This document shows, one piece after another, positions 12,677 through 47,577 of a stretch of DNA of 64,000 nt. The notes beneath the pieces were generated by a model. That model was not told the DNA's origin and searched no databases. It saw nothing but the letters and a program-made list of their open reading frames with translations. The DNA is taken from positions 39,516,985-39,580,984 of the forward strand of contig NC_081365.1 in assembly GCF_030684315.1 (NCBI RefSeq), in the 5' to 3' direction. The position numbers and the translations under genes are program-made. The stretch comes from Stegostoma tigrinum (taxonomy: Eukaryota). The first letter of the stretch is position 1. Every line of letters begins with the position of its first letter.

Positions 12677-12802
12677 TTTCTGAAGAAGGATCTGTAACCG
12701 AAATATCAACTTTCCTGCTCCTCTGATGCTGGGGCCTGCTGTTTTCCTCCAGGTCCACACTGTCTTATCTCTGACTCCAGCATCGGCAGTGCTTACTATC
12801 TC
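12677..12802 (+). mobile_element. Solo Penelope terminus beginning just before the hammerhead motif
   Basis: tttCTGAAGAaggatctgtaaccGAAAtaTC...cttactatctc; TSD tgcagcat at 12669-12676 and 12803-12810. Confidence 0.75.
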
Positions 12803-20103: not shown

Positions 20104-21661
20104 CTCTAAAAGAAAAAAAAGACTTATCACTGTTTTAAATGGACAACCTTTGACTTCTATACAGCAACCTGTATTGCTTGATTCTCCCAAGAAGGGGAAC
20201 ATCCTGTTAACATTTACTGTGTCACGATTCCTCAGGGTTTTATATGCTATAATCGAATTATCTCTTACTCTTTTAAATTCTAGCAAATATAAGTTTAGCC
20301 TATGCAACCTGATCTAATAGAACCACCTGCCAGTTTCGGGTATTAGTCTAATAAACCACTTCTGAACTGCTTCCAATGTGTTTATATCTTTCTTTAAATA
20401 AGGTGACCAATATTCTGCAGAGTGCTCCAGATGTGGTGTCACCAGTACCCTGGATAATGAAACATAACTTCCCTATGTTAGTATTCAACTCCACGCTCAA
20501 TAAATAATAACATTCTTTTGACTTTCTGAATTACTTCCTGTAGCTGCATATTAGCCTTTTGTGATTCAAGCATTAGGACCCAGATTCCTCTGCAGCTCTG
20601 AGCTTTGCTATCTCTCACCATTTAGGTAATATGCTTTTTTTTAATTCTGCCAGCCAAAATAGATAATTTCACATTTTCCCATATTCTATCTGCCTCATCT
20701 TTTTCCACTCAGTTAAAGTATCATATACCTTTTTTTAACCTCTTTATATCCTCTTCGTAACTTACTTTGCTATCAACGTAGGTTTCATTGGCAAATTTGG
20801 CAACTCTAACTTCCATCTCTTCATCCATGTGATTTCTGTAAATTGTAAACAATTGATGTGCCAGCACTGATCTCTGCAGCACATCTCTCATTATATCTTT
20901 CCATCTTGAAAAAGACCCTTTTATGCTAACTCTCGGCTTCCCATTAACCAGTCAATCCTTTATTCCCAACGATATTCTATCCTTGATAAGATGAGCTTTA
21001 ATTTTCCACAATAATTTTAAATATGGCACCTTATCAAATATCTTCTGGAAATCTAAGTACTGTATACACTACTGGCTAATCTTTAACCAAAGCACGTGTT
21101 GCCTCAAGGAATAGGTAAGTAAAACTTGATTTCCTTTTCACAAAATTATGTTGACTCTGACCAGTACCTCGAACTAATCTAAGTGTCCTTTAGTAACTTC
21201 TTTAGTGATAGCTTCTAACATTATCCCTATGTTAGAGGTTAATTTAGTAGACCATCATTTTGCCCTTTACGTCTCTTCTCTTCGAATTTTTTGGAGTAGC
21301 CTCAGAGTGAAGGGACAACCCTTTAGACCTGAGAGGAGGAGCAATTTATTGATCCAGAGTGTAGTTAGTTTTTGAAACTATTTGTTACAAAGAATTGTGG
21401 AGGCCAAGTTATTGAATGTCTTTAAGATAGAGATAGATAGGTTCTTGATTGGTAAGGAGATCAAATGCTCTGGGGAGAAGGCAGGAGAATGGGATTGAGA
21501 AACATGTCAGCCAAGATCAAATGGAACAGCAGACATGATGGGCTGATGGCCTGATTCTTCTCTGACATCTTATGGTCTTCTGGGATGTGGCTCTCTGTCT
21601 GTGCAGTACCTTATCTAGTTGGTATTCCAGGTCCTTGACTCCAAAGCAGGCTGCTAAATTC

Positions 21662-22860
21662 CGCACATCCCAGATGTCCAAGATCTTTAAGGACCGCAAC
21701 TTTCCCCCCACAGTGATCGAGAACGCCCTTGACCGCGTCTCCCGTATTTCCCGCAACACATCCCTCACACCCCGCCCCCGCCACAACCGCCCTAAGAGGA
21801 TCCCCCTCGTTCTCACACACCACCCTACCAACCTCCGGATACAACGCATCATCCTTCGACACTTTCGCCATTTACAATCCGACCCCACCACCCAAGACAT
21901 TTTTCCATCCCCACCCCTGTCTGCTTTCCGGAGAGACCACTCTCTCCGTGACTCCCTTGTTCGCTCCACACTGACCTCCAACCCCACCACACCCGGCACC
22001 TTCCCCTGCAACCGCAGGAAATGCTACACTTGCCCCCACACCTCCTCCCTCACCCCTATCCCAGGCCCCAAGATGACATTCCACATTAAGCAGAGGTTCA
22101 CCTGCACATCTGCCAATGTGGTATACTGCATCCGTTGTACCCGGTGCGGCTTCCTCTACATTGGGGAAACCAAGCGGAGGCTTGGAGACCGCTTTGCAGA
22201 ACACCTCCGCTCAGTTCGCAACAAACAACTGCACCTCCCAGTCGCAAACCATTTCCACTCCCCCTCCCATTCTTTAGATGACATGTCCATCATGGGCCTC
22301 CTGCACTGCCACAATGATGCCACCCGAAGGTTGCAGGAACAGCAACTCATATTCCGCCTGGGAACCCTGCAGCCTAATGGTATCAATGTGGACTTCACCA
22401 GTTTCAAAATCTCCCCTTCCCCAACTGCATCCCTAAACCAGCCCAGTTCGTCCCCTCCCCCCACTGCACCACACAACCAGCCCAGCTCTTCCCCCCCACC
22501 CACTGCATCCCAAAACCAGTCCAACCTGTCTCTGCCTCCCTAACCGGTTCTTCCTCTCACCCATCCCTTCCTCCCACCCCAAGCCGCACCCCCATCTACC
22601 TACTAACCTCATCCCACCTCCTTGACCTGTCCGTCTTCCCTGGACTGACCTATCCCCTCCATACCTCCCCACCTATACTCTCTCCACCTATCTTCTTTAC
22701 TCTCCATCTTCGGTCCGCCTCCCCCTCTCTCCCTATTTATTCCAGTTCCCTCTCCCCATCCCCCTCTCTGATGAAGGGTCTAGGCCTGAAACGTCAGCTT
22801 TTGTGCTCCTGAGATGCTGCTTGGCCTGCTGTGTTCATCCAGCCTCACATTTTACTATCT
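21662..22860 (+). mobile_element. Young 5'-truncated Penelope-like element
   Basis: Open RT-thumb/linker/GIY-YIG frame (ORF 21572-22543); perfect TSD tgctaaattc at 21652-21661 and 22861-22870. Confidence 0.95.
22768..22795 (+). ncRNA. Minimal hammerhead ribozyme motif
   Basis: CTGATGA-a-gggtctaggcct-GAAA-cg-TC. Confidence 0.6.
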
Positions 22861-23370
22861 TGCTAAATTCTCCTTGTTTGCCACGTTCAGGACAGATGGC
22901 AGGAACTATGCAGGGAAACTCTGGACTGCCAGCAACCATCCAGGTGCAAAACAGGCTTTTAAAGATGGTGCAAGGGCTGTGGTATTTTTGCAGATATTGA
23001 CCGAGTGGGAGGTTCTTCTGGGAATGACACATAGTATGATAGGCTAAAATCAGACAAGAGGAATGTCTTAGGGGTGGTTGGGTGATTAAAGAAATGTGGT
23101 AATGTTTGGGAGAAATTTCTCTGGGTCTCTAAGTAAGCATCCCTCTGAAGACCTCAATGCAATTTGCTCTCAGACGAGAAACAAAAAAAATTCAAAAGTA
23201 TTGCCAGTTGTTACTGTATGTTTTCAGCAGTTTCTATTTCTATTTCAAATTTCTCGAATCTGCAAAATTTTTTGAGCTATGTTTAGAAAAGTTAGGAATT
23301 GTCTTTTTGAAGTGTTAATGCAGGCCACCTTGTATTTTTTGTCATTTTCTCTGGGTTAATAAACTTATGC

Positions 23371-23978: not shown

Positions 23979-23999
23979 ACATACATTACCTGAACAATG

Positions 24000-24090
24000 A
24001 TAATGGGAACTGCAGATGCTGGAGAATCCAAGAGAATAAAATGTGAGGCTGGATGAACACAGCTGGCCCAGCAACATCTCAGGAGCACAA
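24000..24090 (-). mobile_element. 91-bp Penelope terminus insertion
   Basis: TSD tacctgaacaatg at 23987-23999 and 24091-24103. Confidence 0.9.
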
Positions 24091-24439
24091 TACCTGAACA
24101 ATGTGTTCCCTATTTAAACACATATTGCTCTGAATTTCCTCATGACTTGCATTTTTAAATAAATCTGTTGAAACCGCTACTGACCACCAGAGGGAGATAC
24201 ATAGCAGTTTCCTGGGTCCTGCTCCAGATATTTTCAAATCAACCTGTTCAGAAATGTGAGAACTCATCTCTGGAGCAGTAGGTACTTGAAGCTGGGGCTC
24301 CTGGCTCAGAGGTGGGGACACTATTGTTGCACCTGTCCTAATTGAATGTATAAATTTTGATTTTTTGGTCACAATTTATATGAAGAATCATTTTTTGAGC
24401 TTGTTTGTACAGTTCGCAACTGAATGATACCTATTAGAT

Positions 24440-24471
24440 ATAATGGGAACTGCAGATGCTGGAGATTCCAA
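24440..24471 (-). mobile_element. 32-bp Penelope tail-only insertion
   Basis: ataatgggaactgcagatgctggagattccaa between gatacctattagat repeats at 24426-24439 and 24472-24485. Confidence 0.88.
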
Positions 24472-25716
24472 GATACCTATTAGATGATATGTTTGTCTCT
24501 CATTCCCACTTAATTTAAAACATATATGATTCTTGGAGGACTTGACAGGGAAGATGCAAAAGGCATGTTTCCCCGTGACCACACGGCATAATCTCTGCAT
24601 GGGTGGTTGTATGTTTAAGACAGAAATGAGGTGGAATTTCTTCTCTCAGATGATAGTGGATCTGTGGAATTTTTTTTATCATAGAGGGCTGTCAAAGTTG
24701 TGAAATATATTCAAGGCTGTGATGGACATATTTTTAATCTGTAGGCAATCAACAGCTATGAGAAAAGAGCAGGAAAGCAGGGTTGAAGGTTATTAGATGA
24801 GCCGTGTTGTCTTTCAATGGCAGAGCAGATTTGATCAGCTGAATAGCCTATATCTGCTCTTAATTGAATCTTTTCAGCTTTCCCCAGTCTTTCCTCATTG
24901 TTTGATCATCCGATACTGAAGGGTAAAATTGGGTATTGTAGCAAAGCAGAACAGGAACATAATTCACCAGCATGCGGTTGCACTCAATTTTCTTGATTCC
25001 AATGTAAAATTAAATGTGGTGTGAAATTAGATATCAATGAATACCTGACCATTTTATATGACTCACAATGACTGTTTCAGCCTTAGTTATCATTCTTATT
25101 TGCAGTACTGCCTTAGAGTTTGAGTTAAAATTTCAATGAGCTTGATGGGCAAAGTACTCAGTGTGTGGTTTGACTGCACTTTGATTTGTGCTTTTTGCAG
25201 AACTTGAGCCCACTTTTGTTTCATTTCAGTTATTTTGGTATCATTTGTGAAGTAAATTTAGCACTCACTTGTCCCAAGTTATCTATGCATTTTTTAGTCC
25301 TCTACAAACTTGTACAGCCTTGGATTCTGTCAATGGAGAAAACCACTTACAGGTTCGTTCAAAGTTGCAGCATGTGCCAGCTAGCTGCTGTCAGAACAGA
25401 AAAGATATTTTACCTCCTACACAAATGAGTAAAATGATATGAGCTTCAGTGCTGGGGTGATTTCAGGTAAGTTTGCCCTATGACTCAACTCCTGGTGCAC
25501 TGTTTCAAACAATAGTCCCCACTAACCATTTACAGAGGATAGCATTATTAATTGTACTCAAGAGGCTGTGTTTGCCAGCTACAGAAAGTTTATCCACACT
25601 TAGTGTGATTAGAAATCATTTACTGAATAATCCAAACTGCACTAAAAATGAGAGAACTGAAGTTGTGAGGATAGATCGGAAAAAATCAGTCTGTTTTCCT
25701 CGGTGAGAGAATAATG

Positions 25717-27502
25717 AACATAGAACATAGAACAGTACAGCACAGAACAGACCCTTCAGCCCACAATGTTGTGCCGACCATTGATCCTCATGCATGCACC
25801 CTCAAATTTCTGTGACCATATACATGTCCAGCAGTCTCTTAAATGACCCCAATGACCTTGCTTCCACAACTGCTGCTGGCAACGCATTCCATGCTCTCAC
25901 AACTCTCTGCGTAAAGAACCTGCCTCTGACATCCCCTCTATACTTTCCACCAACCAGCTTAAAACTATGACCCCTCGTGCTAGCCATTTCTGCCCTGGGA
26001 AATAGTCTCTGGCTATCAACTTTATCTATGCCTCTCATTATCTTGTATACCTCAATTAGGTCCCCTCTCCTCCTCCTTTTCTCCAATGAAAAGAGACCGA
26101 GCTCAGTCAACCTCTCTTCAGAAGATAAGCCCTCCAGTCCAGGCAGCATCCTGGTAAACCTCCTCTGAACCCTCTCCAAAGCATCCACATCTTTCCTATA
26201 ATAGGGCGCCCAGAACTGGACGCAGTATTCCAAGTGCGGTCTAACCAAAGTTTTATAGAGCTGCAACAAGATCTCACGACTCTTAAACTCAATCCCCCGT
26301 TAATGAAAGCCAAAACACCATATGCTTTCTTAACAACCCTGTCCACTTGGGTGGCCATTTTAAGGGATCTATGTATCTGCACACCAAGATCCCTCTGTTC
26401 CTCCACGCTGCCAAGAATCCTATCCTTAATCCTGTACTCAGCTTTCAAATTCGACCTTCCAAAATGCATCACCTCGCATTTATCCAGGTTGAACTCCATC
26501 TGCCATCTCTCAGCCCATCTCTGCATCCTGTCAACGTCCCGCTGCAGCCTACAACAGCCCTCTACACTGTCAACGACACCTCCGACCTTTGTGTCGTCTG
26601 CAAACTTGCTGACCCATCCTTCAATCCCCTCGTCCAAGTCATTAATAAAAATTACAAACAGTAGAGGCCCAAGGACAGAGCCCTGTGGAACACCACTCAC
26701 CACTGACTTCCAGGCAGAATATTTTCCTTCTACTACCACTCGCTGTCTTCTGTTGGCCAGCCAATTCTGTATCCAAGCAGCTAAGTTCCCCTGTATCCCA
26801 TTCCTCCTGACCTTCTGAATGAGCCTACCATGGGGAACCTTATCAAATGCCTTACTGAAGTCCATATACACCACATCCACAGCTCGACCCTCATCAACTT
26901 TTCTAGTCACATCCTCAAAAAACTCGATAAGGTTTGTAAGGCATGACCTACCCCTCACAAAGCCGTGTTGACTGTATTTGATCAAGCCATGCTCTTCCAG
27001 ATGGTCATAAATCTTATCCCTCAGAATCCTTTCTAACACCTTGCAGACGACAGACGTGAGACTTACTGGTCTATAATTGCCGGGGATTTCCCTATTTCCT
27101 TTCTTGAAGAGAGGAATTACATTTGCCTCTCTCCAGTCCTCAGATACGACTCCAGTGGAGAGCGAGGATGCAAAGATCTTCGCAAGTGATGAAGCAATTG
27201 CATTTCTCGCTTCCCAAAGCAGCCGAGGACAAATCTGGTCCGGGCCTGGCGACTTGTCAATCTTAATGTTTGACAAAATTTTCAGCACATCAGCTTCCTC
27301 TATCTCTATCCATTCCAGCATGCACACCTGCTCTTCAAAGGTTTCATTCACTACAAAGTTTGTTTCTTTCGTAAAGACAGAAGCAAAAAACTCATTTAGG
27401 GCTTCCACTACCTCCCCAGGCTCCACACACAAGTTCCCTATGCTATCCCTGATCGGCCCTACTCTTTCTTTGACCATTCTCTTATTCCTCACATAAGTGT
27501 AA
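25717..27502 (-). mobile_element. Young 5'-truncated CR1 LINE (ORF2 RT domain, one frameshift ~26299)
   Basis: ORFs 26107-27492 and 25802-26269: GNYRPVSLTS, SQHGF, DFSKAFD, GVPQGSVLGP, FADD; 3' (gaacata)n tail. Confidence 0.96.
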
Positions 27503-28689
27503 AGAGAGGGGATTTACAGGGGTATTGAGATCCATGAGGAATATGGTCAGAATTGTTTAGAAGAAACAATGTCTACTTGTGAAAGCTCTTCGAATGGGAG
27601 GGCACAGATTTAAACTACTTGGCAAAAGATGCAAAAGTAGCAAGTAGAAAAATTTCATCATCAGAGTGGAATGCACTGCCTGAGTGTATCTTGAAGGTAG
27701 GTTCAATTGAGACATTCATGAGGGAATTAGGTAGTTATTTGAAAAGGGGCAATGTACATGGTTATGGGCAGAAAGTGGGAGAATTTTAATGGATGACTTG
27801 CTTATGCTGACAGACAGTGCAGCCACAAGGGGATGAATGGTCTTCTCCTGTGTTGGAATAATTCTTTGATTGTGTGATATTGCATGATTCTTTGAAATAG
27901 GAGTAATACTAGGATTTCTGGGCCAATGAGTTGTTAAAATATTGACTTGTTAAACACAACATTTGTGTTTGAAACAAATCTTCCCTTGATTTGTCACTTT
28001 AAGTTGTGCTTTTCCTTCTTCATTTTATATGTTGCTGAGGTCATTCAGTGATGTGTCATTAATAAATTAATCATACTGCTTGGTGTGCACTGCCTGATGC
28101 TTTTTCTCAGTATTGTGGTCACGGTTAAGAGCTACAATCACTTTTTCTTTATCCAACCTTGCTGCCTGGTGAAGAAATTGTACGATCATTAACTCCATCA
28201 CAATAAGCAGAGGCACAATTTCAGTCAAAGTCCAAATATTTTAAGAAAGGAGAAAATACACTATGAGAAAAAAAAATGTACACTATATGTACCACTGGGT
28301 CTGTGGAAAGACATTGCTAATGATGTTAATTGTGCCTTGCTTTCTGAATATTTATTTTCATCCTTCATAGAATTGAGTGCAGAAATACCCATCTATTCTG
28401 CTCATGTACTGTTTAGCTCATTACAGAATAGCTAAGAGTCAGCGCTTCATCTGAGCTGGAATTGGAAGCTGGGCTTTTTCAGATGAAATAGCTTGTGCTT
28501 TGTGAGCTAAAAGCTTGATATGACTCACTTGTGTCCTTATTTGAAGATCGCAACACACAGTTCCGACCTTGATGGATGGTGGTGAAGCAGACAGCACGCA
28601 AACTTTGCATTGCTTGATCATCCCCATGATTGTGGTATCGGTAGGGGCCAGTTTTCATGCAAGGTTAACGTGAATGCAGGCTTGCTTTA

Positions 28690-28940
28690 AAGCCAGTGAA
28701 GGAGCAGCAGCATCTGTGACTGTTTTTCACAATAAAGACCCTCATGCTATCTGAAAGAGCACTGGGATCCTTCATGAGAAAAAGTGAAGGTACGTGGCAA
28801 TTCTTTTTTCTGCAGAGGGGCTTAGCAGCTCAAGAAACATATAATCTGAAGGGAATGCAGATTGGCGCAGAGGCCAATGCAAGGAGAGTGGTGCAGAGAA
28901 TTTAGTTACAGGACCTGGTGGCCACAAGGTTTGCAGTATC
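28690..28940 (+). mobile_element. Possible Harbinger transposase C-terminal relic
   Basis: SVTVFHN ... LQDLVATRF resembles the xxLHN...R..LI..RF C-terminus; heavily decayed. Confidence 0.25.
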
Positions 28941-30888
28941 TGACACTGCTGAAACCATCCGGAATGACCGCAAATTCTTACTTTAGGCACCTTCTCAAAT
29001 TCCACTTCATTGTCAACCCACAGTCTCGTATAAATTACATGCTTCAGCAGTGGGACCATTTCACTTTATTTTTCAATATCACATCCTCTGACAAACCTTT
29101 TAATGTGCTTATGTGGGGGCAAAGTTTTTCATTTAAATACCAGTTCATCTGTGCATGTTTAAGATCTGGAGGTTCAGAATGGTGGTCTGACGCAACATAA
29201 CTAATAGACTCTGAATGAGAATGTGCCCTGCCATCATGCTTCCAGCACAAGTACAGGATGCCAACAGTGTGCCATCTTTTCGAACATGATGATTCATGTG
29301 TAATGTGCCAGAAGTCACTAGACACAGGCACCCAGTCATTGCCAGACTCCCGTAGTACTGAAACCCACAGCGTTGTGGAAACATAATTTGTAGTCTTTAC
29401 TGACTTTAAGGGATTTACTGATGGTTGATGGCATTTCAGCTTGCCATTGTTTAAACAAAGTACTTGAATATAGTCATTCTGCAAACTCAGTGAAATCTGC
29501 CTCATTTTACAAGGGAAAAGCACACTAAAAGTAGCTGTACCCAATCAGAGGATCAAAACTGGAATGATGCTCCATTTTGCTGATGTGTACCTTCTCACTT
29601 GCCATCCTCTCAAAAATCTGTGACAGAAATCAAACACCCTCTCATTTTCACTTTAACTTTGTAAGATAGAATTTTCAGCATTTATTCATAGAAAACATAA
29701 AGAACGTTTGTGAAATTTTAAATTATAAGCTGTACAAAATGGACCTATTAAGAATGAACTTGCCAGCGTAAGGCGGTTACTCAATATGCATATATAATAT
29801 ATAAAAAACAAATCTTAGGCATATAAAGCCAATCAAAAATGGCAACATCCAGAGATTATTTAATGACACATAATTCCCTAGATAGTAACTATTTTAATTT
29901 TCAATTTCTCCTGTCAACACTGTCCCTTGTGGACATGAAGGACTAACTTTAACTACCAGCAAAAAGTTTTGACCAATTTGAGACACGTACCTTAAATGGT
30001 TAATACCCTGTTAAAATTCACCAGTTCTAAGGGGACCAGGTCCAACTCTGCCCATTAGTACATAAAATTTTTAAATTGGGATTTGCTTAGTTGTGAAGGT
30101 AAAGTTGAGCCAGGTTAGGTCACAGCAACAATGGAGCTACTATCGCTTTCCCAATGGATAGACTAAGTCAAAATCTGTGCTCTATTTCAACTGTTGCAAC
30201 CCTCTGATATCTATTTGTTGTTGTTATTCTTTTGGAATGAACCAGGAAGACAAGTGTCAGCGGACTGCTTGACCAAAGGCATTGCAGTTATGTCTAATCT
30301 GTTTTTACCCACTGTGTACAGTGCTACAGGAAGAGCTGGAAACTGTAGATGTTTCCACTGCTAGATTGGAAAGGGACAGATGTAAAGGAACTGAGGGTGA
30401 TGTGATCTACACTACCATTAGTTATTTTGACTGGCTGTAGACATCTTCTATCAGATGGCATACCTTTGAAACTTTCTTTCTGGCAATTAGAAACCTGAAC
30501 AGATAGTGGTCCTTAGTTGTGCCATGTCCACAGATGGTTGTCCACACATTCTTTTTTTTTTCATTCTCTCAGGATGTTTACATCGCCGGCTAAGCCAGCA
30601 TTTATTTACCCTTTATAATTGCACAGAGGACACTTAAGAGTCAACTGTATTACGGTGGGTCTGGAGTTCAGACTAGACAAGAATGGCAGTTACCTTCCTC
30701 AAAAGACATTAGTGGAACAGATAGGTCATTCCAACAATTGATGGTTATACTTTTAATTCCATAATTTTCTTTTTTTTAAAATTCAAATTCCACCATCTGC
30801 AATGGTGTGATTTGATCCAACAATCCAGGTCATTTCCCAAATCTCTGGATTAATAGTCTGGCAATAAAACTAGTTGGCCTTTACTTCC

Positions 30889-31534
30889 GTGATAATGGGA
30901 ACTACAGATGCTGGAGAATCCAAGACAATAAAATGTGAGGCTGGGTGAACACAGCAGGCCCAGCAGCATCTCAGGAGCACAGGAGGGGACGAACTGGGCT
31001 GGTTTTGGGATGCGGTGGGGGAAGGGGAGATTTTGAAGCTGGTGAAGTCCACATTGATACCATTGGGCAACCCTGCAGCCCAATGGTATCAATGTGGACT
31101 TCACCAGCTTCAAAATCTCCCCTTCCCCCACCGCATCCCAAAACCAGCCCAGTTCGTCCCCTCCCCCCACTGCACCACACTGCATCCCAAAACCAGTCCA
31201 ACCTGTCTCTGCTTCCCTAACCTGTTCTTCCTCTCACCCATCCCTTCGTTCCACCCCAAGCCGCACCTCCATCTCCTACCTACTAACCTCATCCCACCTC
31301 GACCTGTCCGTCTTCCCTGGACTGACCTATCCCCTCCCTACCTTCCCACCTATACTTTCCTCTCCACCTATCTTCTTTTCTCTCCATCTTCGGTCCACCT
31401 CCCCCTCTCTCCTTATTTATTCCAGAACCCTCACCCCATCCCCCTCTCTGATGAAGGGTCTAGGCCCGAAACGTCAGCTTTTGTGCTCCTGAGATGCTGC
31501 TGGGCCTGCTGTGTTCATCCAGCCTCACATTTTA
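30889..31534. mobile_element. Young rearranged fold-back Penelope insertion
   Basis: Perfect TSD tggcctttacttcc at 30875-30888 and 31535-31548; 87-bp perfect inverted repeat inside. Confidence 0.93.
31448..31475 (+). ncRNA. Minimal hammerhead ribozyme motif (consensus copy)
   Basis: CTGATGA-a-gggtctaggccc-GAAA-cg-TC. Confidence 0.65.
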
Positions 31535-33209
31535 TGGCCTTTACTTCCCCTTAATGACTGCTGTTTGAACTTTAGCACTCTAATGCCAGCTCACATAGAC
31601 TTCCTTGACATGCCTTCTTTCATCTTAAAGCTCGACATTGTTCTTTGGAGTATTTAGAAAGCAATTGTCAATAATTTGTTTTGCATTGGTATGGAAGCTG
31701 GCAGAGGAGCCTGTAACCTTGCAACTGGTGTACTGCAACAAATGTTTCAAGCTCATTTTCCTACCCCATTGTCTAATCTTGTTTCGCTGAATTCTGGAGG
31801 CTGGTTGAAATTTACTTAAATGTTTGATCATTCTGCATGCAATATACCTGACTATGCACAAAAATTCCCCAATTGTAATAATACTAAACATTGCCAAAAA
31901 AGGTATAAACACTAAAAAGCTACTGAAAACAATGTAAACGAGAAAATAAAACTCTTCGATATCTCCCTTATGTCTGGTATAAACCTTAATAAAAATCAGA
32001 ATCCCTTCCTTATTACCATATTCCCCTAAAATAAGATTTATCTTTGAAAAATCTGCTTCCTCATGCATGGCAAAATAAATGCCATCAGAAAAGCTTAAAA
32101 AACATTCTGACTCCAACTGCACGCACATGCAAACTGTTACACGTAATACTGTCTCAGTAAAGGCTGGCTCTGAACTACAATTGCTTGAATAACTGAGCCA
32201 TCCTGCCCTTCATCACAACACATTTAAGGCCTTTAGCATGATGTATATTTTTAAAAAGTCTTGTCTCCTGCCATGTTCTGATAGTATCTTTCAGAAATAA
32301 ATTTTAAATTGCTTCTCTCCTATCTGCCAACAATATTAATATGCCTGAGGTCACAGGCTATATTCGACTGGTGAAAGTTATTTCACCCATGTCCAACAGT
32401 CTGCTTAGAGCCCGACGATCACCATTCCTTATTTCAGCATTAAACCAGCACTCTCAATTACATTACCAACATTGGCTATTTTTTGCATATAGAACTTCCA
32501 AATGTTTCTCTTCCCTATTGTTGTTGGCGTCGGTGAGATTTGAATGATGTGCTTCCATTGTACTTTTTCCCAGGCTTTTCACTCTCTTATATATTTGAAG
32601 AGGTGTTGTTTCAGCCACTTCATTTTAAGACTGAACGAATTAAAATGAATCTGGTTTCACACTGCAGTGAGAGTAAACAGCTCTGCATTATCTTCAAGGT
32701 TTGGACAAATACTTTGTATCCTAGTGACAAAACAACCGCTAAATATACAGTGTCCCCGACAATGCACTTTCCAGATACTGAATAACTAATTCTTCTCTGC
32801 TGATGCAGCAATTTAGTATAGCAGTTTTGACAAGTCCAATCCTGAGCACAAATTCTATGAAAGCATCGCATTGCTTTTCAGGGCTTGGTCTGTTAGGCTT
32901 TTAGAATATTACACTCTGCTTATTTCGTTATTTTTACACTTACAGGTACTCTAGATTTGGGGCATTGGCTGCAATAATTTCAACACATGGGAAGGGTTGA
33001 AAATGAAACCTTCATGAAAAAGTATTGATGTTCATCTTAAGTTTGAATTCAAGAACGGAAAATTACAAGAAGGTTCCTAAATCTTAAATGATTGCAATCA
33101 TGCAAAGAATGAAGTGAAGTTGTTTGAAGCAGAAGATAAGCTGGGCTTTCTCGCAAATTACTGCAAAACCAATGAAAACATATTTATACATTTCTTGTTC
33201 AAAGTTTAT

Positions 33210-33366
33210 CAATGACGTGGAGATGCCGGTGCCGTACTGCGATGGACAAAGTCAGAAGTCAAACAATATCAAGTTATAGTCCAACAGGTTTATTTGAAAT
33301 CAGAAGTTTTCAGAGCAGAGCCCCTTCTTCATCTGACGAAGGGACTATGCTATGGAAGCTTGTGAT
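33210..33366. mobile_element. Fold-back hammerhead-bearing element (family 4) in predicted CD101 3' UTR
   Basis: TSD ttcaaagtttat at 33198-33209 and 33367-33378; divergent decayed cores (CTGACGA...GAAgcTT on +; ATGAAGA...GAAAacTT on -). Confidence 0.7.
33289..33294 (-). promoter_or_regulatory. Candidate polyadenylation signal (AATAAA) for the CD101-like gene
   Basis: AATAAA on minus strand ~230 nt after the stop codon, inside the inserted element. Confidence 0.3.
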
Positions 33367-33525
33367 TTCAAAGTTTATAAAGTCTAGTTTATAGTAAAAT
33401 GAAAATTAATGTTCTGTTTGGTTGGCACCACTATGAATATTTCCCCACAAGTGATATCTTGCTGCCAATTAGGTCACAGTTCCCATAGCAACAATAGAGA
33501 GTTGCAAAGATAAAAAATTGAAGTG

Positions 33526-33743
33526 CTATTTTACATTTTCTTCTTCTTCACTCTTAGGATCGTCAATGAATGTTTCTATCGGTGTCCAAAAGCTCTTTTC
33601 ATTAATAGGTTTCTGTGGTTTCTTTGGCCTCAAATAAAAATAAAGTGCAACGATGATAAGAGCTATAATGACTATAAATGGATAGATAAATATGAAGTAG
33701 AAGAGAGAGGACGATGCACAAGCCTTTGAGTGAAGAGTAGCAC
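33526..33743 (-). CDS. CD101: CD101-like last coding exon: stalk, transmembrane helix, cytoplasmic tail
   Basis: tttctag|GT; GATLHSKACASSSLFYFIFIYPFIVIIALIIVALYFYLRPKKPQK...EEEENVK*; TAG at 33526-33528; LFYFxFxYPF-type TM start as in the EWI family. Confidence 0.92.
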
Positions 33744-33989
33744 CTAGAAAATAAAACAAAAACATGTTAGAAATGATAGTATTCTTTGAAACATTGGATA
33801 GTTTGAGCTCATATTTTCAATCTAAAAACGGAATCTGAACTTTAGGTAACTTTTTTCTAAGATAAGACCACAGCTCCAATCGGGCTTGGGGGGTACTGGA
33901 CTGGTGTGGGAAAGGGGGAAGAGAGTGTGGGGACGGCCTGGGGTGGAGTGGGACGAGGGTGGTGGAAGAAAGAAAGAACTAAAGAAAAA

Positions 33990-34356
33990 AGGGTGGTACT
34001 GGAGCTTAGTGGTTAGCACTGCTGCCTCACAGCACCAGGGACCCAGATTCAATTCCACCCTCGGGCCACTGTCTGTGTGGAGTTTGCACATTCTCCCCAT
34101 GTCGGTGTGGGTTTCTGCCAGGTGCTGTGGTTTCTTCCCACAATCCAAAGATGTGCAGATTAAGTAGAATGGCCATGCTAAATTGTCCATGGTGTGTGAA
34201 TTAGGTGGATTAGCCATGGGAAATGTAGGGTTACAGGGAAAGGTGAGGGTGGCGGGGGGGGGGGTGGTGGTTGGGCCTGGGTGGGATGCTCTTCAGAGGA
34301 GTGGTGTGGATTTTTTGGGCCAAATTGCCTGTTTCCAAACTGTAGGGATTCTATGA
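33990..34356 (+). mobile_element. HE1-type V-SINE
   Basis: tRNA head (agtggttagcactgctgcctcacagc...gattcaattcc), V-domain (tgtgtggagtttgcacattctcccc...tccaaagatgtgc), CR1-derived tail (cctgtttcc...ctgtagggattctatg). Confidence 0.9.
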
Positions 34357-37300
34357 TAACTTTAAGCTCCAATTCCAAGATTTTCAACTGTAGAGCAAAA
34401 AGCAATCAGAAAATAACTTGCATTAATAAGAAGAGTATGTGCCATTCAATGTGGGACTTATTCTAAAAATGAAGCCGGCTTTTCAGTTTAGTTGAAAGTC
34501 ATTCATGAAAATCCTCCTTGTCAGCAATCCCAAATAAGTATTTTGATAATACTGAAAATTTCGTATTCAAGTATTCAATTTATACACCATATTTTGTCTC
34601 CACATTCAGTTATGTCTCACACATACCATGTTCTAGTTTCATAACTAAACATTCTCATTAGTCTATGCATTTTAATCAATTACTAAATATTAAACATTAT
34701 TTCCATATTTCTATATTGAAATTTTCTTTAAGAATGCAAGTGTCTTTCTAACACTTTACCACATCCAAGTAATTATGTCTTTGAAGTTCCATTCCAGGAA
34801 TGGGAAGATGGGTGGCAGATCTCCTGATGTATTGTGTAAGAGGTACTAGTATTAGTGAGAGATTCCTAGATAACCCATAGCAGATGTGAGGCTAGATGTA
34901 TCAACTGAACAAGTGAATTGCTCCAGTTATTTCACATTCGTCGCTGGCCAGAAGAAGCCTTCGGCCTCCCCCAGCCCTAAATGCACTTCCAAACCTTCAG
35001 TCTCTAGTGACTATTGGCTTTGTCTGCAGACGACCCCAGTTGTGCCCTCTTGCCCCTTCTTTGTAGCTCCCTACTGTCAGACTATAAAAATAGGGAGTAT
35101 TGGGAAAACTATTAAAATGGGGGACTGTCATTAGGATCCACAAGGCGTTCATTTCTATATTTTCTTCATTTTTGCTGATCCTTGCTCAGGCTATAGCATA
35201 TTTGCTGATTGCCAAACCATCTAAAGGATCCTAAATGTTGCTGTGGGCTCTTTCAAGGGTGTCACAACAATAGTCAGAGCTCTATCAGTATGACCTTCAG
35301 GGACTGGTCATGTTGGTTGCTCATTGGAATCAATGACAGAGTAAGCACGAGCTCACAGCGGCTGCATGGTCCAACATGCTGAGAGAGTGCCAACAGCAAT
35401 ACCACTGCAGGGGTAAGTAGGTAAGAAGAAAATGCTTCTCAGGATGACTCATCATCTGCTACTAAACCACATCAGTCTAAAATCATAACCCAAGTGCAGC
35501 TATCATATATTATGACTTAAAGCTATTTGCATATGCAAAGTATGCATTTTTCATGTAGATTTGCTGCTTGAACTTTCCTTTGTTCTGTTGAATTTGCTTT
35601 GTGCTAAGGTCAAAGCTGCAAGGGAAGCTACGTATAAATACCGAAATGTATCAAAGTAATAAAGATCACAAAACAATCAACTGCACCAGGAAGGGAGTAT
35701 GATCTTCACTGTTTTAACCACAATGTAAAATCCAGCCATTGAATGATTAAAAAAAATATCTTCCTGATTTAAAATAACAGATGGGTAATAAATTGTTACA
35801 TCCATTCACTTCAGCTGAAATACACAGCAAATGTACTTTTCAAATACTGCTACCCTAAAAAAAATGACTTTATGGAGTTTTTGATATTCCATTACGTCCT
35901 ATTGAATTATATTTTCAGTAAAATCAGGACAGAGAGATAATTAAAGCAGACTGTGACTGCTCTAGTAATGATATATAGCATGTAATAAACAGCTCTTGGA
36001 ATCATTTTGTTCATTCCAGATGGTATTATGATAGAACAACTTAAATCATGAGGCAAAAGCCTACGAGAACAATAGACTATATGAGGTTTGTGTTATTAAA
36101 GCCCTGGTGCAACCTCAATGTTGACTACATTTCAATGTCTGTATATTATAAGTGATATATCACCAACAGGGTTATGTGGAGAGACCATTGTAGTGCAGTA
36201 GGTAGCAGCCCTGCCTCTGGACTCGTAGTTCAGGTTCAAATTCTTTTTCAGGACTTGATAGCCTAGTTTGGCAACTTCTAAGTTATTTTAATATGCTCCA
36301 GGCAGGTAGCAAGAGCAGGGCACACTCTTGCTCAGCTTGATGCTGGTGCTCCACAAGACCTAGTGTCTGGCAACAGGCCACTGGCCTATTCATGAAAATT
36401 CCAGCCATGGCAAGCATAAGTGAGCATGTGGTTTGTTTGCCTCATGTACCACTGCCAATGGAAAGAGTAAATAAGAATATGGCTACATACCAATGCAATC
36501 ACAATCAAATCCAGATGTAAACCAAGGAAAAGCTCACTTACTATTTTGCATTCATTTGAAAAGTTTATGATTTTGGTAAAATAAATTATTTTAAGGCTTT
36601 TTTTCAATTCAGAACTTTTACATGGAAATAGTAGTTATTTTTTAATCAGTATTTTAATTATTGTGTTAAAGAGTAAGACTATTGAAGAAAATGCTATGGC
36701 ATTCATGGAATTTGAGTTAAGTTTGAGGACTTTAACCCCAACAAAGAAATAATTTGTATAATTATTGCATTCTGCTTTATTTCAGAAGTTACTCAAAAAC
36801 TAATTAAATGCTTTAAGTTAGACATTGTTATTATTTAGGGACATTATTATTTAGGGACAGGACTTGTTTCAGTTTTTCAAGGACAATAAGAATGGGTAAT
36901 AACTGCTGACCTTGCCATTGATACTCCCATTCCATAAATAAATGAAAAAAAAAGAACAGTCCTGTACAAGCTTTAAAGTAACTCCATGTTTAACTTCTTA
37001 CATGAATGTTACCTAAGTACAGTACTGGAATAAAGCTCCGACCTGAGTCCACATCTCTTCATTGATTTCACCATTATCACTGGACTCAAATGAAATTCTA
37101 TTTTGTTGTTATTGCTGTGATTGACCCAAAAAAATCCCATTTCTTTTCCTCATGCAAAATCTTTATTTCCTTTCAATGATTCTCACATTCCTATAGGATT
37201 CTTTGATCAACCAAATTTGAATCCTGCCCCTCACCTGAAGTGACCTTAATAGCAACGCACCAGTGTTCGAGAGAGAATGTTAATTCTTGTCAGATAGGTG

Positions 37301-39230
37301 GTTCCACCTCTCATCTCAAGCTTCCAACCTTTATCTCTCTAATCAAATGTTCTTAATTGCAAGTATCAGTTATAAAGCAGACATCCTGCATTTCCTTCAT
37401 TTTCAGTTATGAAAGTACATTTTTTTGCTGGTGACAGTACTGATTGCTCTGCCAGTATTTTTATTTGTATTTTTCCAACGAAAGACAGTGAGTAAAGGAA
37501 AAGGAAAATGCATACATTTTAAAGACCTCGTTGCAGATCCTCTGAGCCGTAACCACATCGCAATAGCTCAACTGAGCCAGCGTATACTGACTAAACCCAG
37601 GAAGTCTGCAGCTGATTAGTTCATAACTGAGATTGAGCCAATTAGTTTTAAGTTTCTATGGGTAATTTTAGCTAAATGACCAACAGGAAACAGGCAGATT
37701 GATAGAAACAACCATTTCATTTAGAGTCATTGGGTTACATAGTAACACAGCATGGAAACAGGTCCTTCAGCTCAAACTGGTCCATGCTGACCATGGTGCC
37801 CACTCAGCTAGTTCCAATTGCCTGCATTTGATCCATATCCCTCTAAACTCTTCTCATCCACGTCCCTATCCAGATGTTTTTTAAAAGTCAATAAAAACTG
37901 TGGTGCTAAAGAAAGTAGCTACTGCAGCTTTCCCATCAGGAGAAGATAGTGGGAAGAGGAGTTGTGTCCACAAGAGTCCTGAACAGCTAGGATCTTTTTT
38001 TCCCTCACCTTTGTGGCCACGAGTAGCAGCAGTGCTCCTCTAGATTTCACAGAGAAAGTTTTTAGGCCTTTCCCTTCATGCAAGGTTCTCCCACCACCAA
38101 AACATTCCCTCACTTCCCAATTGTGGGATTCATTGTTGCAAAGTCCACAAGGCCAAATCTAGGTAATGGCAGGAACCTGGTATTGGTAGGACGTATTTGC
38201 TTTATTGTGTTTTCCATTGGCTTTCTGACAATTATTGGTGATAAGTCGGTAAGTGAAATTTATTAAAGACTCAGGAGTTCAAATAATCAGATTTCTGGGG
38301 TGAAATAAAATAAAAAAAAACTTCAAATCGCAGTGCTTCTCACCCATCCCAAATCAATTTCAAATCTTTTCATTCAGACTTATTATAGTCAGACGGAGTG
38401 TGTACCACACCTTATTCTGATTTCCATAGTGACTTTGGTCTGGCCTCCGGAAAGTACCTTCTACAACATAGTAAAACACACATTCTCTGCAGTCTGAGCA
38501 AGATCACTGAGTTAAAGCCAATTAACCACAAATTGAGAAACAGGAAAGAAAGTGGAGTTAAGACTACAACCTTATAAGCACTCACCTTATCAAATAGCAG
38601 CACAAGTACAAAGGGCCAAAATGACCTACTCATAGTTCTAATTTGTATGTGTGAAAAGTTCTGCACTTTGAGACCCCAGGCGTTTAGAACTGAACTGAGC
38701 CTGCCTGAATTGACTTCGTGTATGGCTTTTATATCCAGAAGATAGAGAAGTTTTTACCATTTAGAAATTGAACTAAATTAAAATCTAAATCCCTGAGATA
38801 AACGGCAGCTTCCTTCTACATTCCTCAATATATGTAGCATTGGTAATTATTAGAACAAGTTACTGTTGTCAATTTGCATTCTCTCTGAATCATATAGGCA
38901 TTTACTGCAGTGTTCTGGTCAAGTTTCAGAACGGAAACCTTCAGTTCCTTTCTACGTATTAGCTGTCTACTAGAATTAGAGAGATATAAAGATAATAGCT
39001 TCACACGCATCACCATAAGTAACTCATCTTTCTGATGATTGTGTTTGAGTCTAGTGTCAGTGGAGAGAAAGAAAGAAAGGTCAACATTTAATATACAATT
39101 AATCCAAAATCCCATTCTAATATTGGCATAACTTGCATCATTTCTATGCAGCCTGATTGAGAAACATATTCCAGGAGACATACTTCTGATCAAACAAGTT
39201 GGTTTCTGGTGAAATAGTTATATATATTAC

Positions 39231-39644
39231 CTGGTGTCTGAACTTGAAGAATTATTGATCCAGAGCGAGCATGTCCTTGTAGAACCCATTCATTCTGGGT
39301 GCCAGAGACCCATTCTTCCACATCACAGAAGTAAACACCATTGTCACTCTGCGCTGCCTTCTGTATTATCAATTTGTAGGTGTTACTGGAGGTCTTCACA
39401 CTTTGGAATTTCATCATTTTCTGAGGATCTACCTGCAGATCTCCAAAATATTGCAGGATATTATTTCGATCAGCTTTGAGAAGTGCTGTCTCCTTGGTGT
39501 TTGGATTATCATTTTGGAAGTACCATGTGACTGAAAATTGTGATTGTCTCTGTGTCTGGTTAATGATCTGGCATTCAAGTTCGACAGCAGTGTTCTCATT
39601 TATTGAGAGAGTTGAGTTATTGTTACTGATTTGTAGGTTTGCAT
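39231..39644 (-). CDS. CD101: CD101-like exon, IgV domain 7
   Basis: ctgcag|AT ... G|gtaata; 414 bp; ELECQII...FSVTWY...DNGVYFCDVEEW. Confidence 0.92.
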
Positions 39645-39753
39645 CTGCAGAAGCAATACAAGACAAAAAAATCATGAAACTTGCTTGGAAGTGAGGAAAA
39701 TCACAGTGCATTTTGGCGTTGAGCTCAGAGAAAATGTGCCAAGTAAATTGCAG

Positions 39754-39941
39754 GATAATAAAATGTGGGGCTGGATGAACACAGCAGGCCAAGCAGCATC
39801 TCAGGAGCACAAAAGCTGACGTTTCGGGCCTAGACCCAAGGGTCTTTTGTGCTCCTGAGATGCTGCTTGGCCTGCTGTGTTCATCCAGCCCCACATTTTA
39901 TTATCTTGGAATCTCCAGCATCTGCAGTTCCCATTATCCCC
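39754..39941. mobile_element. Young fold-back mini Penelope insertion
   Basis: Perfect TSD agtaaattgcag at 39742-39753 and 39942-39953; inverted arms. Confidence 0.93.
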
Positions 39942-41720
39942 AGTAAATTGCAGTATTGTTTTCTTCAGGGCTTAATTGTAAACTCTACCTTGAAGATCTG
40001 TAATCAAATCATCATTGCGCAAGTTTTACTTTCTCATTTTACTTTAATCAAGTAACCAGAGACACTAAAGTTATGGATAGCGTTGTATGTTCACCAGTTT
40101 GTTGCACTCTTTGTATGTCCGGTTTATCTCTGAGCAATGCAGAGATGACCCTAGTGCTAGGTCTGAACAGCTTTACTTACAGTGCTTTAAAATGGTTCCA
40201 CAATCATAGAAGCTCTACACAAATGTTCACAGCTTGAGTTTTTCAGGTCTTTCTGGAAGCATTTGTTCACTTTAGCATTCAGAGATTTCAGCCAGGCTCA
40301 TTTAAGTACAATGAATGTTAAGTCAATTAAATAAGCCCATGATAAAACTCAGAAGATTTAATCCATTGAACACTACAGAGAATAAATCTCCATTCACTAA
40401 AATAATGTTTTGTATCATAAATACTAGGGATATGGACATTTTCTCATCTATACTAAAAACTTTTTAAATTTCAATTTGATACAGACCTTCACTAACCATC
40501 ATTAGTCTAACAAATTCACTAACATTTAAAGATCACAAGTAAAATCTAGAATTCTGCCCTAATCTTACAAAAGCAACTAGTTTCTGTTGAATATGGGCAC
40601 ATGACATTAGGAGTACAACTTATATGTGACAGACTCACCAACATAGACCAAACTAAATTTTGAACTCTGTAAAAAAAGGTGCTTCAAGAGGAGGATAGAC
40701 CTATTGAGACTGAATGTTCAATTTTCCTGTTAATGCAAAGGCAAGAGTGGCTTGTAAGAGATCCTTCATATCTGGATGCATAGGAGTAAGAAACTTTTAT
40801 TATTTGTACTGCTCTATACCCCATCCCTTTATTATCACTACATAATCCCTACATAATATCGTCAGAGCTGCACCATCATTGCATTATTTCAAATGGTTCA
40901 AATGGTTCCACTACTATCGTTACAATGTAACAGGGGATGGATAATGCAGTTTTTTTTTAAAAAATGGATCAGATTTAAACAAATATTCAACAGAAATGTG
41001 GTTGAAAATTTCTGCAATTGAGCTTCTTCTGCGCTTTAAAATAATTTGTTCAAAAATGTCCATTACAGCAAGACAGGCATGTAAAATTTTCCTATCCTGC
41101 CAACCAGCACTGAGGTGGGTCAATTACTGCCCATCACTCTCTATGCAATCATTGATGAGGTGATGGAACGGGTCAACAGAGCTTCAAGTTGTTCTTGCTG
41201 AGCAACAACTTGATGTTCAACTTGGGGTCCATCCAGGTCATTCAGCTCATTGCAGCCTTGCTCCAAACATGGGCTAATGTGCTGAGCCCTAGAGGTGCAG
41301 TGAGAATTATTGCTTTTGCTATCAAGGTTACATTTGACTGAATATGGTGTCAAGTACTCCCAGGAAAATTAGGGTTAATAGGAGTCAGGGGAAAACACTA
41401 TGCTGGTTGGAGTCGTACCTAGATCAATAGAAGATGGTTATGATTTTTGGAGGACACAACTAGGGATGTTCACTGATGATTGAGCAATGTTCAACACCAT
41501 TCATGACTCCTCAGGTACTGAAACAGTCTGTTGTCCATATGTAGCAAGACCTAAACAGCATTGAGCTGATGAGTCGTGGGTACATTCATTCTTTACAATT
41601 CCTGGCAGTTATTATGTTCAGCAAGAACCATCACCCCTAGAGCATTCAATGGCATCACTATCACTGAATTCCCCACCGTCAACACCCTGGGGGCTTAACG
41701 TTGGCCAGAACTTGAACTGG

Positions 41721-43957
41721 AGATAATGGGAACTGCAGATGCTGGAGGTTCCAAGATAATAAAATGTGAGGCTGGATGAACACAGCAGGCCAAGCAGCAT
41801 CTCAGGAGCACAAAAGCTGACGTTTCGGGCCTAGACCCTTCATCAGAGAGGGGGATGGGGGGAGGGAACTGGAATAAATAGGGAGAGAGGGGGAGGCGGA
41901 CCGAAGATGGAGAGTAAAGAAGATAGGTGGAGAGAGTGTAGGTGGGGAGGTAGGGAGGGGATAGGTCAGTCCAGGGAAGACGGACAGGTCAAGGAGGTGG
42001 GATGAGGTTAGTAGGTAGCTGGGGGTGCGGCTTGGGGTGGGAGGAAGGGATGGGTGAGAGGAAGGACCGGTTAGGGAGGCAGAGACAGGTTGGACTAGTT
42101 TTGGGATGCAGTGGGTGGGGGGGAAGAGCTGGGCTGGTTGTGTGGTGCAGTGGGGGGAGGGGATGAACTGGGCTGGTTTAGGGATGCAGTAGGGGAAGGG
42201 GAGATTTTGAAACTGGTGAAGTCCACATTGATACCATATGGCTGCAGGGTTCCCAGGCGGAATATGAGTTGCTGTTCCTGCAACCTTCGGGTGGCATCAT
42301 TGTGGCAGTGCAGGAGGCCCATGATGGACATGTCATCTAAAGAATGGGAGGGGGAGTGGAAATGGTTTGCGACTGGGAGGTGCAGTTGTTTGTTGCGAAC
42401 TGAGCGGAGGTGTTCTGCAAAGCGGTCCCCAAGCCTCCGCTTGGTTTCCCCAATGTAGAGGAAGCCGCACCGGGTTCAGTGGATGCAGTATACCACATTG
42501 GCAGATGTGCAGGTGAACCTCTGCTTAATGTGGAATGTCATCTTGGGGCCTGGGATGGGGGTGAGGGAGGAGGTGTGGGGACAAGTGTAGCATTTCCTGC
42601 GGTTGCAGGGGAAGGTGCCGGGTGTGGTGGGGTTGGAGGGCAGTGTGGAGCGAACAAGGGAGTCACGGAGACAGTGGTCTCTCCGGAAAGCAGACAGGGG
42701 AGGGGATGGAAAAATGTCTTGGGTGGTGGGGTCGGATTGTAAATGGCGGAAGTGTCGGAGGATAATGCGTTGTATCTGGAGGTTGGTAGGGTGGCGTGTG
42801 AGAACGAGGGGGATCCTCTTGGGGCGGTTGTGGCGCGGGAAATGCGGGAGACGTGGTCAAGGGCGTTATCGATCACCGTGGGGGGAAAGTTGCGGTCCTT
42901 AAAGAACTTGGACATCTGGGATGTGCGGGAGTGGAATGTCTTATCGTGGGAGCAGATGCGGCGGAGGCGGAGGAATTGGGAATAGGGGATGGAATTTTTG
43001 CAGGAGGGTGGGTGGGAGGAGGTGTATTCTAGGTAGCTGTGGGAGTCGGTGGGCTTGAAATGGACATCAGTTACAAGCTGGTTGCCTGAGATGGAGACTG
43101 AGAGGTCCAGGAAGGTGAGGGATGTGCTGGAGATGGCCCAGGTGAACTGAAGGTTGGGGTGGAAGGTGTTGGTGAAGTGGATGAACTGTTCGAGCTCCTC
43201 TGGGGAGCAAGAGGCGGCGCCGATACAGTCATCAATGTACCGGAGGAAGAGGTGGGGTTTGGGGCCTGTGTAGGTGCGGAAGAGGGACTGTTCCACGTAA
43301 CCTACAAAGAGGCAGGCATAGCTGGGGCCCATGCGGGTGCCCATGGCCACCCCCTTAGTCTGTAGGAAGTGGGAGGAGTCAAAAGAGAAGTTGTTGAGTG
43401 TGAGGACGAGTTCAGCTAGGCGGATGAGAGTGTCGGTGGAGGGGGCCTGGTCGGGCCTGCGGGACAGGAAGAAGCGGAGGGCCTTGAGGCCATCTCCATG
43501 CGGAATGCAGGTGTACAGGGACTGGACGTCCATGGTGAATATGAGATGTTGGGGGCCAGGGAATTGGAAGTCCTGGAGGAGGTGGAGGGCGTGGGTGGTG
43601 TCACGGACGTAGGTGGGGAGTTCCTGGACCAAAGGGGAGAAAATGGAGTCCAGATAGGTGGAGATGAGTTCGGTGGGGCAGGAGCAGGCTGAGACGATGG
43701 GTCGACCAGGGCAGGCAGGTTTGTGGATTTTGGGAAGGAGATAGAAACGGGCCGTGCGGGGTTGGGGAACAATGAGGTTGGAGGCTGTGGGTGGGAGGTC
43801 CCCTGAGGTGATGAGGTCGTGAATGGTGTTGGAGATGATGGTTTGGTGCTCGGGTGTGGGGTCATGATCGAGGAGGCGGTAGGAGGTGGTGTCGGAGAGT
43901 TGGCGTCTGGCCTCGGCGATGTAGAGGTCAGTGCGCCATACTACCACTGCGCCACCC
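41721..43957 (-). mobile_element. Young Penelope-like element, longest young copy (RT + GIY-YIG), 5'-truncated, 25-bp internal deletion ~42835
   Basis: ORF 42538-43947: FYLLPKIHK, GRPIVS, FTMDVQSLYT, GVAMGTRMGP, LRYIDD, FLDL, FKPTD; endonuclease in shifted frame; possible 5-bp TSD ctgga. Confidence 0.96.
41819..41846 (-). ncRNA. Minimal hammerhead ribozyme motif, sense to CD101 pre-mRNA
   Basis: Minus strand CTGATGA-a-gggtctaggccc-GAAA-cg-TC. Confidence 0.65.
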
Positions 43958-47367: not shown

Positions 47368-47577
47368 GAGATAGTAGGAACTGCAGCAGATGCTGGAGAG
47401 CTGGATGAACACAGCAGGCCAAGCAGCATCATAGGAGCAGGAAAGGTGACGTTTTGGGCCTAGACCCTTCTTCAGAAAAGGGGTCAGAAGAAGGGTCTGG
47501 GCCCGAAATGTCAGCTTTCCTGTTCCTATAATGCTGCTTGGCCTGCTGTGTTCATGTAGCCCTACACCTTGTTATCA
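47368..47577. mobile_element. Fold-back mini Penelope insertion with back-to-back decayed hammerheads, inside a CR1 3' remnant
   Basis: gacgttttgggcctagacccttcttcag / cagaagaagggtctgggcccgaaatgtc; inverted arms. Confidence 0.8.

Follow-up and report, generated by a model that had tools for sequence, protein, structure and literature searches.

Short insertions of a Penelope-like element in Stegostoma tigrinum: a likely capped RNA start and a likely, but minor, ribozyme-cut end

Described Penelope-like elements and the element of the window

Penelope-like elements (PLEs) bearing an endonuclease, as described in the passages of PMC8557442 and PMC3846280 considered here, share with the element of this report a reverse transcriptase (RT) followed by a GIY-YIG domain, a terminal repeat with a hammerhead, partial tandems, an inverted arm, a tail on one arm only (32 nt in the present case) and short target duplications. 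Unlike in the present analysis, the 5' breakpoints are not mapped to RNA ends in those passages, and the junction palindromes of PMC3846280 receive a different reading there, namely self-priming on an antisense template. With regard to the weak minimal hammerheads of animal PLEs, the excerpts of PMC4209133 (Cervera and De la Peña 2014) and PMC11167929 (Frangieh 2024) describe an activity that is low in vitro, a lack of evidence from in vivo work (a statement made for PLE hammerheads in the former) and one dispensable cut. The latter excerpt deals with PAc, a Poseidon-type PLE of the green anole, whose ribozyme proved dispensable in vitro, no RNA-seq reads of the element beginning at the cut; it also describes two internal reverse-transcription start sites bounding the tail, extension of both target strands and a protein-assisted hammerhead. 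Among the papers listed by literature searches, in which subscription journals are thinly covered, none was found to map PLE junctions to the hammerhead cut or to a capped start.

The window analysed here is a 64,000-nucleotide stretch of the S. tigrinum genome. Judged from sequence, four stubs in it, singled out by a first-pass annotation, belong to a very abundant endonuclease-bearing PLE with a minimal hammerhead. Two window copies, overlapping along the reference, together give an RT and then a C-terminal GIY-YIG domain in one frame, with an RVT_1 match under the Pfam curated cut-off (E 1.9e-5, first copy below) and a GIY-YIG match just under it (E 1.5e-4, second copy). All positions are numbered on the first of these natural copies, with C17 of GUC as 0 and the first base past the cut as +1.

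41719..43960, minus strand: long 5'-truncated reference copy with RT region, GIY-YIG region and terminal repeat; its hammerhead core occupies 41846-41819, the cut is predicted to fall between 41819 and 41818, and position -31 lies at 41850
21661..22862, plus strand: copy without the tail; it has the GIY-YIG domain, the CxxxxCxxC linker and, at 22768-22795, a hammerhead core

The linker between RT and endonuclease reads CNRRKCYTC, that is, CxxxxCxxC. It has the CX2-5CxxC form of the Neptune clade and fits Nematis as well, linkers of this type being tied to both Neptune and Nematis in the part of PMC8557442 considered. PAc is of Poseidon type, unlike the window PLE with its Neptune-type linker, which is placed by motif alone. 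The long reading frame of a further copy, L198, begins about 45 nt past the tail. Inverted arms and partial tandems are both present, as in a pseudo-LTR (partial tandem or inverted, with a one-sided 30-40-bp tail). In a random sample of 1.6 Mb, comprising eight 200-kb blocks of the assembly, the 3' ends of arms lie at +64-68 and +97-100, and 62 of 64 inversions combine one tailed and one tail-less arm; both features match the two internal start sites of the anole element as given in the PMC11167929 excerpt.

Non-LTR retrozymes (10.64898/2026.07.22.740005, as far as the available part goes) are alike in being non-coding, hammerhead-bearing derivatives of PLE terminal repeats. They differ from the four loci, none of which consists of two or more units in tandem that each contain a complete hammerhead: all four are single stubs, three of them lacking a whole core on the arm concerned. 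Tandem arrays of retrozyme layout do exist elsewhere in the S. tigrinum genome (L028, L205-L210). A mini family that copies itself was also considered and found no support, as the junctions vary from locus to locus, which points to separate events from the parent element.

The terminal repeat holds CUGAUGA-A-GGGU(CUAG)GCCC-GAAA-CG-UC, in agreement with the minimal-hammerhead description in the part of PMC4209133 considered. As in a minimal type I hammerhead, CUGANGA, GAAA and UH are present, and the further points in common with that description are the absence of loop 3, the palindromic 15.2-16.2, the extra base ahead of helix II and G10.1-C11.1. Helix II differs in having 4 bp instead of the usual 7-8 bp, while helix I, with 2 bp, is like the D. 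virilis variant of the same source, in which it otherwise has 4-5 bp. The motif GAAACGTC^AGCTTTTGTGCTCC is found in natural copies. In the 1.6-Mb sample helix I has 2 bp in the window family and 4-5 bp with changed pairs in two rarer families, and since its flanks co-vary between these hammerhead families, the cut is placed at GUH^. The predicted minimum-energy fold pairs CUGAUG (-27..-22) with CGUCAG (-3..+2), an inactive form, so that, with a helix I of only 2 bp, the cut is predicted to be inefficient. An Rfam scan of the window returned no hammerhead match at E<=1, its only hits being of miRNA type, on palindromes.

The dominant edge near position -31

BLAST returned 345 arms in the 1.6-Mb sample, one of which was dropped because of its closeness to a block edge, and 258 were kept, these having at least 85% identity and extending on their 3' side to +55 or further. 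Their 5' ends are distributed, from upstream to downstream, as 65 beyond -300, 18 at -300..-35, 65 at -34..-28, 49 at -27..-14, 22 at -13..0, seven at +1, 12 at +2..+10, nine at +11..+30 and 11 further on. The breakpoints are not uniform, as the first-pass annotation had required of its histogram check, although microhomology, which it had named as a competing cause, does shape many junctions. The main signal is not the cluster 2-8 nt past the cut which that annotation had proposed. The dominant pile-up lies at -34..-14, with 114 of the 258 arms against 19 at +1..+10, and the density at +2..+10 (1.3 per nt) is not above that at -13..0 (1.6 per nt). That cut RNA should be the main template, with breakpoints clustering 2-8 nt past the cut, is therefore very improbable: it could draw on the four loci themselves and on the excess of +8 over -4 starts genome-wide (1482 against 236), but it is contradicted by this histogram, and by the upstream sequence present in two of the four loci.

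Within the pile-up there is a hard edge near -31 (-33..-28), with an excess of G just before it. Genome-wide counts refer to exact patterns, 21 matching bases after three non-matching ones, in the whole 3.2-Gb assembly, and cover seven start positions (-31, -4, +1, +2, +3, +8 and +28); other positions rest on the small numbers of the 1.6-Mb sample. Loci were examined one by one for 50 starts at -31 and 48 at +1, the latter made up of 30 unselected loci and 18 chosen as non-palindromic, the remaining positions being pattern counts. Flank shares are taken from the first 100 hits listed, in contig order and not as random draws, and the passage of flanks through the exclusion filters differs between patterns, perhaps twofold by a hand estimate.

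Starts exactly at -31 amount to 8050 arms. The base before them is G in 83 of the 100 hits listed (40 GAG, 10 AGG and 33 other G, with 17 not G; hand count), but GAG and AGG flanks can derive from the partner arm, for many of the G's at -32 the partner arm or the target can serve as template, and G is frequent before other positions too, at about 45% by eye. Among the 50 loci examined, nine of 15 solo copies have a G before the start (p=0.006), three of these G's lying clearly outside the duplication, four being common with the target and two ambiguous. WGS contigs have loose ends at -28, and also joints in which a G is interposed ahead of -31.

Three stubs of an older subfamily in the window belong to the same main class:

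12679..12802, plus strand: stub starting at -28, with an 8-nt duplication
47400..47576: palindromic stub with arm ends at -35 and -28
52542..52636, plus strand: stub starting at -28

Near-full-length copies behave differently. Of those that reach -14 in their upstream repeat, none of nine stops at -34..-14, compared with 114 of 197 first-pass arms of the 1.6-Mb sample (p=4e-4), which argues that the edge is not a simple sequence barrier. Eleven such copies were considered in all; nine have ends that range from -194 to beyond -1375, and the other two stop at +8 and +19. That the upstream repeat regularly begins at -31 was rejected, as it does so in none of the eleven. A mismatch between subfamilies was rejected as the source of the edge, the flanks being inverted arms or unique DNA with duplications.

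Taken together, the -31 edge likely represents a capped RNA start. In the young subfamily position -31 is compatible with a TCT-type start, in the older one with an initiator A. Such an RNA would carry the whole hammerhead, and since most short insertions run to about -31, they come from RNA with the ribozyme still on board. Against the reading it counts that, with an RNA start at -31, full-length copies with longer upstream repeats would need another template. In the passages considered of PMC4859970 and PMC4729875, an extra 5' G in L1 and SVA is read as cap copying, and the likeness to the present case extends to inversions by priming on both strands. The difference is that run-off here occurs about 100-130 nt past an internal start, so that stubs, and not full copies, mark the start of the RNA. 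An internal promoter is described for the D. virilis element in the part of PMC2377424 considered.

Starts at the predicted cut and their possible sources

Genome-wide, 3201 arms start at +1, compared with 407 at +2, 489 at +3 and 621 at +28, tandem arrays making up roughly one third of the +28 hits listed, and one recurring junction about 30 of 100 listed +8 hits. The flank forms a perfect palindrome centred on AG|CT in 65 of 100 +1 hits listed (about 2080 arms). At the two other 4-bp palindromic sites the corresponding shares are 27 of 100 listed at ACGT (-4; about 64 arms) and 10 of 100 listed at GGCC (+28; about 62 arms), all three being hand counts, which leaves AGCT with roughly 30-fold more; the count at ACGT is some 25% smaller than it would be without CpG decay (73 versus 98 exact copies). 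Without the palindromes and a recurrent AGG junction, about 800 starts at +1 are left by hand estimate, around twice those at +2 or +3 and fewer than at +8, so that the single-base spike is mostly palindrome. In the 1.6-Mb sample the seven +1 arms represent six loci, one of which is an internal deletion, and the excess, taken as five events, has p=0.018; perfect palindromes number one at AGCT and none at ten other sites, figures too small for testing. Internal indels account for five of the 48 examined +1 loci, and AGC or AG microhomology is seen at many +1 junctions.

If both cDNAs of an inversion were copied from cut RNA, neither arm could hold sequence from upstream of the cut. Among the 64 unbiased inversions of the sample, the partner lies at or past +1 in none of 12 with an arm at -13..0, and in five of eight with an arm at +1..+10 (p=0.0036); with an arm beyond +10 it does so in two of seven, upstream partners returning in the other five. 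The background for downstream partners is 20 of 128 arms overall. Both arms fall within +1..+13 in five of the 64 inversions where 0.66 would be expected (p=6e-4), that is, about 8% with a 95% range of 2.6-17%. Among the loci examined individually, non-palindromic +1 inversions have a downstream partner in 17 of 19 cases, versus three of 31 for the -31 loci.

The base before the start points in the same direction, but only modestly. With recurrent trimers removed, G precedes eight of 25 starts at +1 and 33 of 50 at -31 (p=0.007), a contrast that becomes weaker when fewer trimers are removed (18 of 35 versus 43 of 60, p=0.075), and the lower share at +1 modestly favours an uncapped end. Pieces ending 3' at the cut showed no enrichment (60 at 0 versus 49 at +3), a null that may be uninformative because copying starts internally.

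It is probable, on balance, that the stubs are pieces of the terminal repeat made by twin-primed run-off, the RNA end in question being, for most of them, likely the capped one near -31 and, for a small share, likely the ribozyme-cut one at +1. The PLE enzyme would copy the front of its own RNA from the two internal sites (+64-68 and +97-100) onto both strands of the cut target, reverse transcription would run off the 5' end of the RNA, mostly at the putative cap near -31 and in a small share at the putative ribozyme-cut end, and the two cDNAs would then be end-joined with the loss of a few bases. From cut RNA, cDNAs ending in the self-complementary AGCT would result, which would account for the perfect palindromes, while trimming of +1 ends would yield part of the ends at +2..+10.

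Other sources of the +1 class have to be weighed against this reading. A second polymerase II start could coincide with the hammerhead cut, in which case the ribozyme need not act at all. Transcription starts most often at the dinucleotide C|A, and the TCAGCT of the +1 site is initiator-like; moreover, such a start forecasts the same coupling of partners and the same null at 3' ends. It is nevertheless unlikely, since G is not raised before +1 as it is before -31, clean AG|CT palindromes suit an end without an extra cap-derived base, and its agreement with a cut site that is fixed by structure would have to be put down to chance. A little less probable again is a stall of the RT at the base of the predicted CUGAUG/CGUCAG hairpin, with +3 as the last base copied, although the minimum-energy fold provides such a hairpin, and blunt joining of these ends would give an identical palindrome, so that palindromes cannot separate +1 from +3 ends. 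The separation comes from the other junctions: at -31, where ends coincide too, at most 40 of 100 listed hits are of palindrome type, and a stall should by that measure leave thousands of non-palindromic starts at +3, where only 489 starts were counted, a good many of which are deletions of a single base or join the arm to an upstream partner. Fold-back of the cDNA via TCAG/CTGA was considered as well and rejected, fold-back junctions at -1/0 being zero in an exact-match scan of the sample, a result which also counts against the stall.

No more probable than the stall is an origin of all stubs from uncut RNA, the +1 class arising at the DNA level through trimming and joining by AGCT or AGC microhomology, or through later loss of palindrome centres. 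The microhomology at +1 junctions and the smooth fall of counts downstream from -31 agree with such events, and loci 39844 and 30981 (see below) are of this type. What speaks against them as the general source is that other palindromes of the same 4 bp, at -4 and +28, serve as junctions so much less often, and that the coupling of partners switches across the cut, with mostly upstream partners again beyond +10. The proposal that ribozyme-cut RNA has left a genomic record is supported in part under the run-off reading: the exact +1 spike, the AG|CT palindromes, the partner arms without upstream sequence and the lack of a marked G excess before +1 speak for it, but the class is a minor one, its mark lies at +1 and not at +2..+8, and two of the four loci that gave rise to it need uncut RNA.

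The four loci and their meaning

All four junctions are real, with 2, 5, 6 and 8 nt lost past the cut as originally described (arm starts at +3, +6, +7 and +9 for 39844, 24090, 30981 and 3469, respectively), except that the fourth had been placed at 3479 and lies at 3469/3470. The target duplications claimed for them were found in every case and measure 12-13 bp.

3412..3557: palindromic stub in which the inverted arm (+66..+9) meets the tailed arm (+19/20..+99) at 3469/3470; duplication 3400-3412 / 3558-3570 (13 nt, 1 mismatch)
24000..24090, minus strand: simple 5'-truncated stub, +6..+97, without inverted arm; duplication 23987-23999 / 24091-24103 (13 nt)
30891..30981, minus strand: tailed arm +7..+97, joined straight to element position -337; duplication of the locus 30876-30888 / 31536-31548 (13 nt)
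30982..31063, minus strand: upstream piece -418..-337 of the 30981 arm
31066..31535, plus strand: inverted partner arm of the 30981 locus, -435..+60, with a whole core at 31448-31475
39754..39837, minus strand: inverted arm of the 39844 locus, reaching -19, upstream of the cut; duplication of the locus 39742-39753 / 39942-39953 (12 nt)
39838..39939, plus strand: tailed arm of the 39844 locus, -21..-14 (AAGGGTCT), then a jump via shared CT into +3..+98

Two of these loci, 24090 and 3469, fit a cut template. The 24090 stub could derive either from cut RNA that lost 5 nt or from truncation of the ordinary kind, and neither arm of 3469 extends upstream of the cut. By contrast, 39844 and 30981 contain upstream sequence and need uncut RNA: the AAGGGT that precedes the 39844 arm makes up, with the shared CT, element positions -21..-14, and the join at 30981 is an internal deletion or jump and not a free 5' end.

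As a wider reading, for which the case is evenly balanced, thousands of insertions in this one vertebrate genome would record both ends of PLE RNA at the level of the single base, namely a capped start 4 bases before the core and the hammerhead cut. The coupled arms would then mean that one cut RNA, or a pool of cut RNA, serves both primers, and the minimal PLE hammerhead would be active in the germ line, cutting a few percent of the templates, with the cut RNA still being copied. Independently of this reading, the junctions show that uncut RNA is the source of most stubs, so that insertion does not depend on cutting. The junctions predict capped ends at -31/-29, 5'-OH ends at +1 (AGCUUUUG) and an origin from cut RNA for about 3-17% of inversions, and, if the reading is true, they amount to genomic evidence for germ-line cutting by a minimal PLE hammerhead. 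Unlike these S. tigrinum junctions, no genomic junctions at the cut are reported for PAc in the part of PMC11167929 considered.

In the window, which holds 22 arms by hand tally, four start at +1..+10, compared with the sampled 19 of 258 (p=0.074). The window itself is intronic, the gene in question having several Ig V-set exons.

Copies and junctions at the predicted cut

When numbered from C17 of the GUC triplet (position 0), so that +1 is the first base past the predicted hammerhead cut, two of the 11 near-full-length copies of the Penelope-like element, L213 and L214, start just beyond that cut, at +19 and +8, and none of the 11 starts near the main 5' edge at -31. This pattern hints that monomer RNA, once cut, can serve as a template over its full length. 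Direct junctions at +1 and at -31 also occur, and these look like template jumps following run-off:

L239, L244, L246, L247, L318; L286, L294: tail or frame-start sequence joined to +1, or upstream pieces joined to -31

Arrays of the element's repeat

Arrays that carry the element's repeat lie on several contigs of the assembly:

G000:C6, ~41.053-41.058 Mb: loci L028/L029/L191-L197
G000:C4, ~126.926-126.931 Mb: loci L205-L210
G000:C2, 58.043-58.045 Mb, and C1, 187.87 and 188.28 Mb: pieces of the repeat, arrayed at intervals of 208 bp and 46 bp

The C6 and C4 arrays, which are tandem arrays with unit lengths of 420 bp and 654 bp, carry a complete hammerhead plus the reading-frame start in each unit, and resemble retrozymes in their layout.

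Other features of the window

Further hammerhead families, with a longer helix I (flanks CAGUU/AACU and AACAC/GUGUU), occur at window 15743 (-) and in the sampled 200-kb blocks of the genome. The remaining features are as follows:

15657-15816: palindrome from another repeat, carrying a different hammerhead core
33293-33372: palindrome from another repeat
24440-24471: tail-only stub of ~32 nt, flanked by a 14-nt duplication (24426-24439 / 24472-24485)
26107-27513 (-): RT frame, to which a copy at 18055-19839 is related
39190-60255 (-): reading frames the size of exons, which code for the Ig V-set domains of a host gene with multiple Ig domains

By its appearance, the RT frame is a candidate CR1/L2-like LINE, distinct from the Penelope-like element, and the host gene may resemble the IGSF3/EWI family. 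The tail-only stub lies 350 bp from the simple 5'-truncated stub at 24000-24090 (-).
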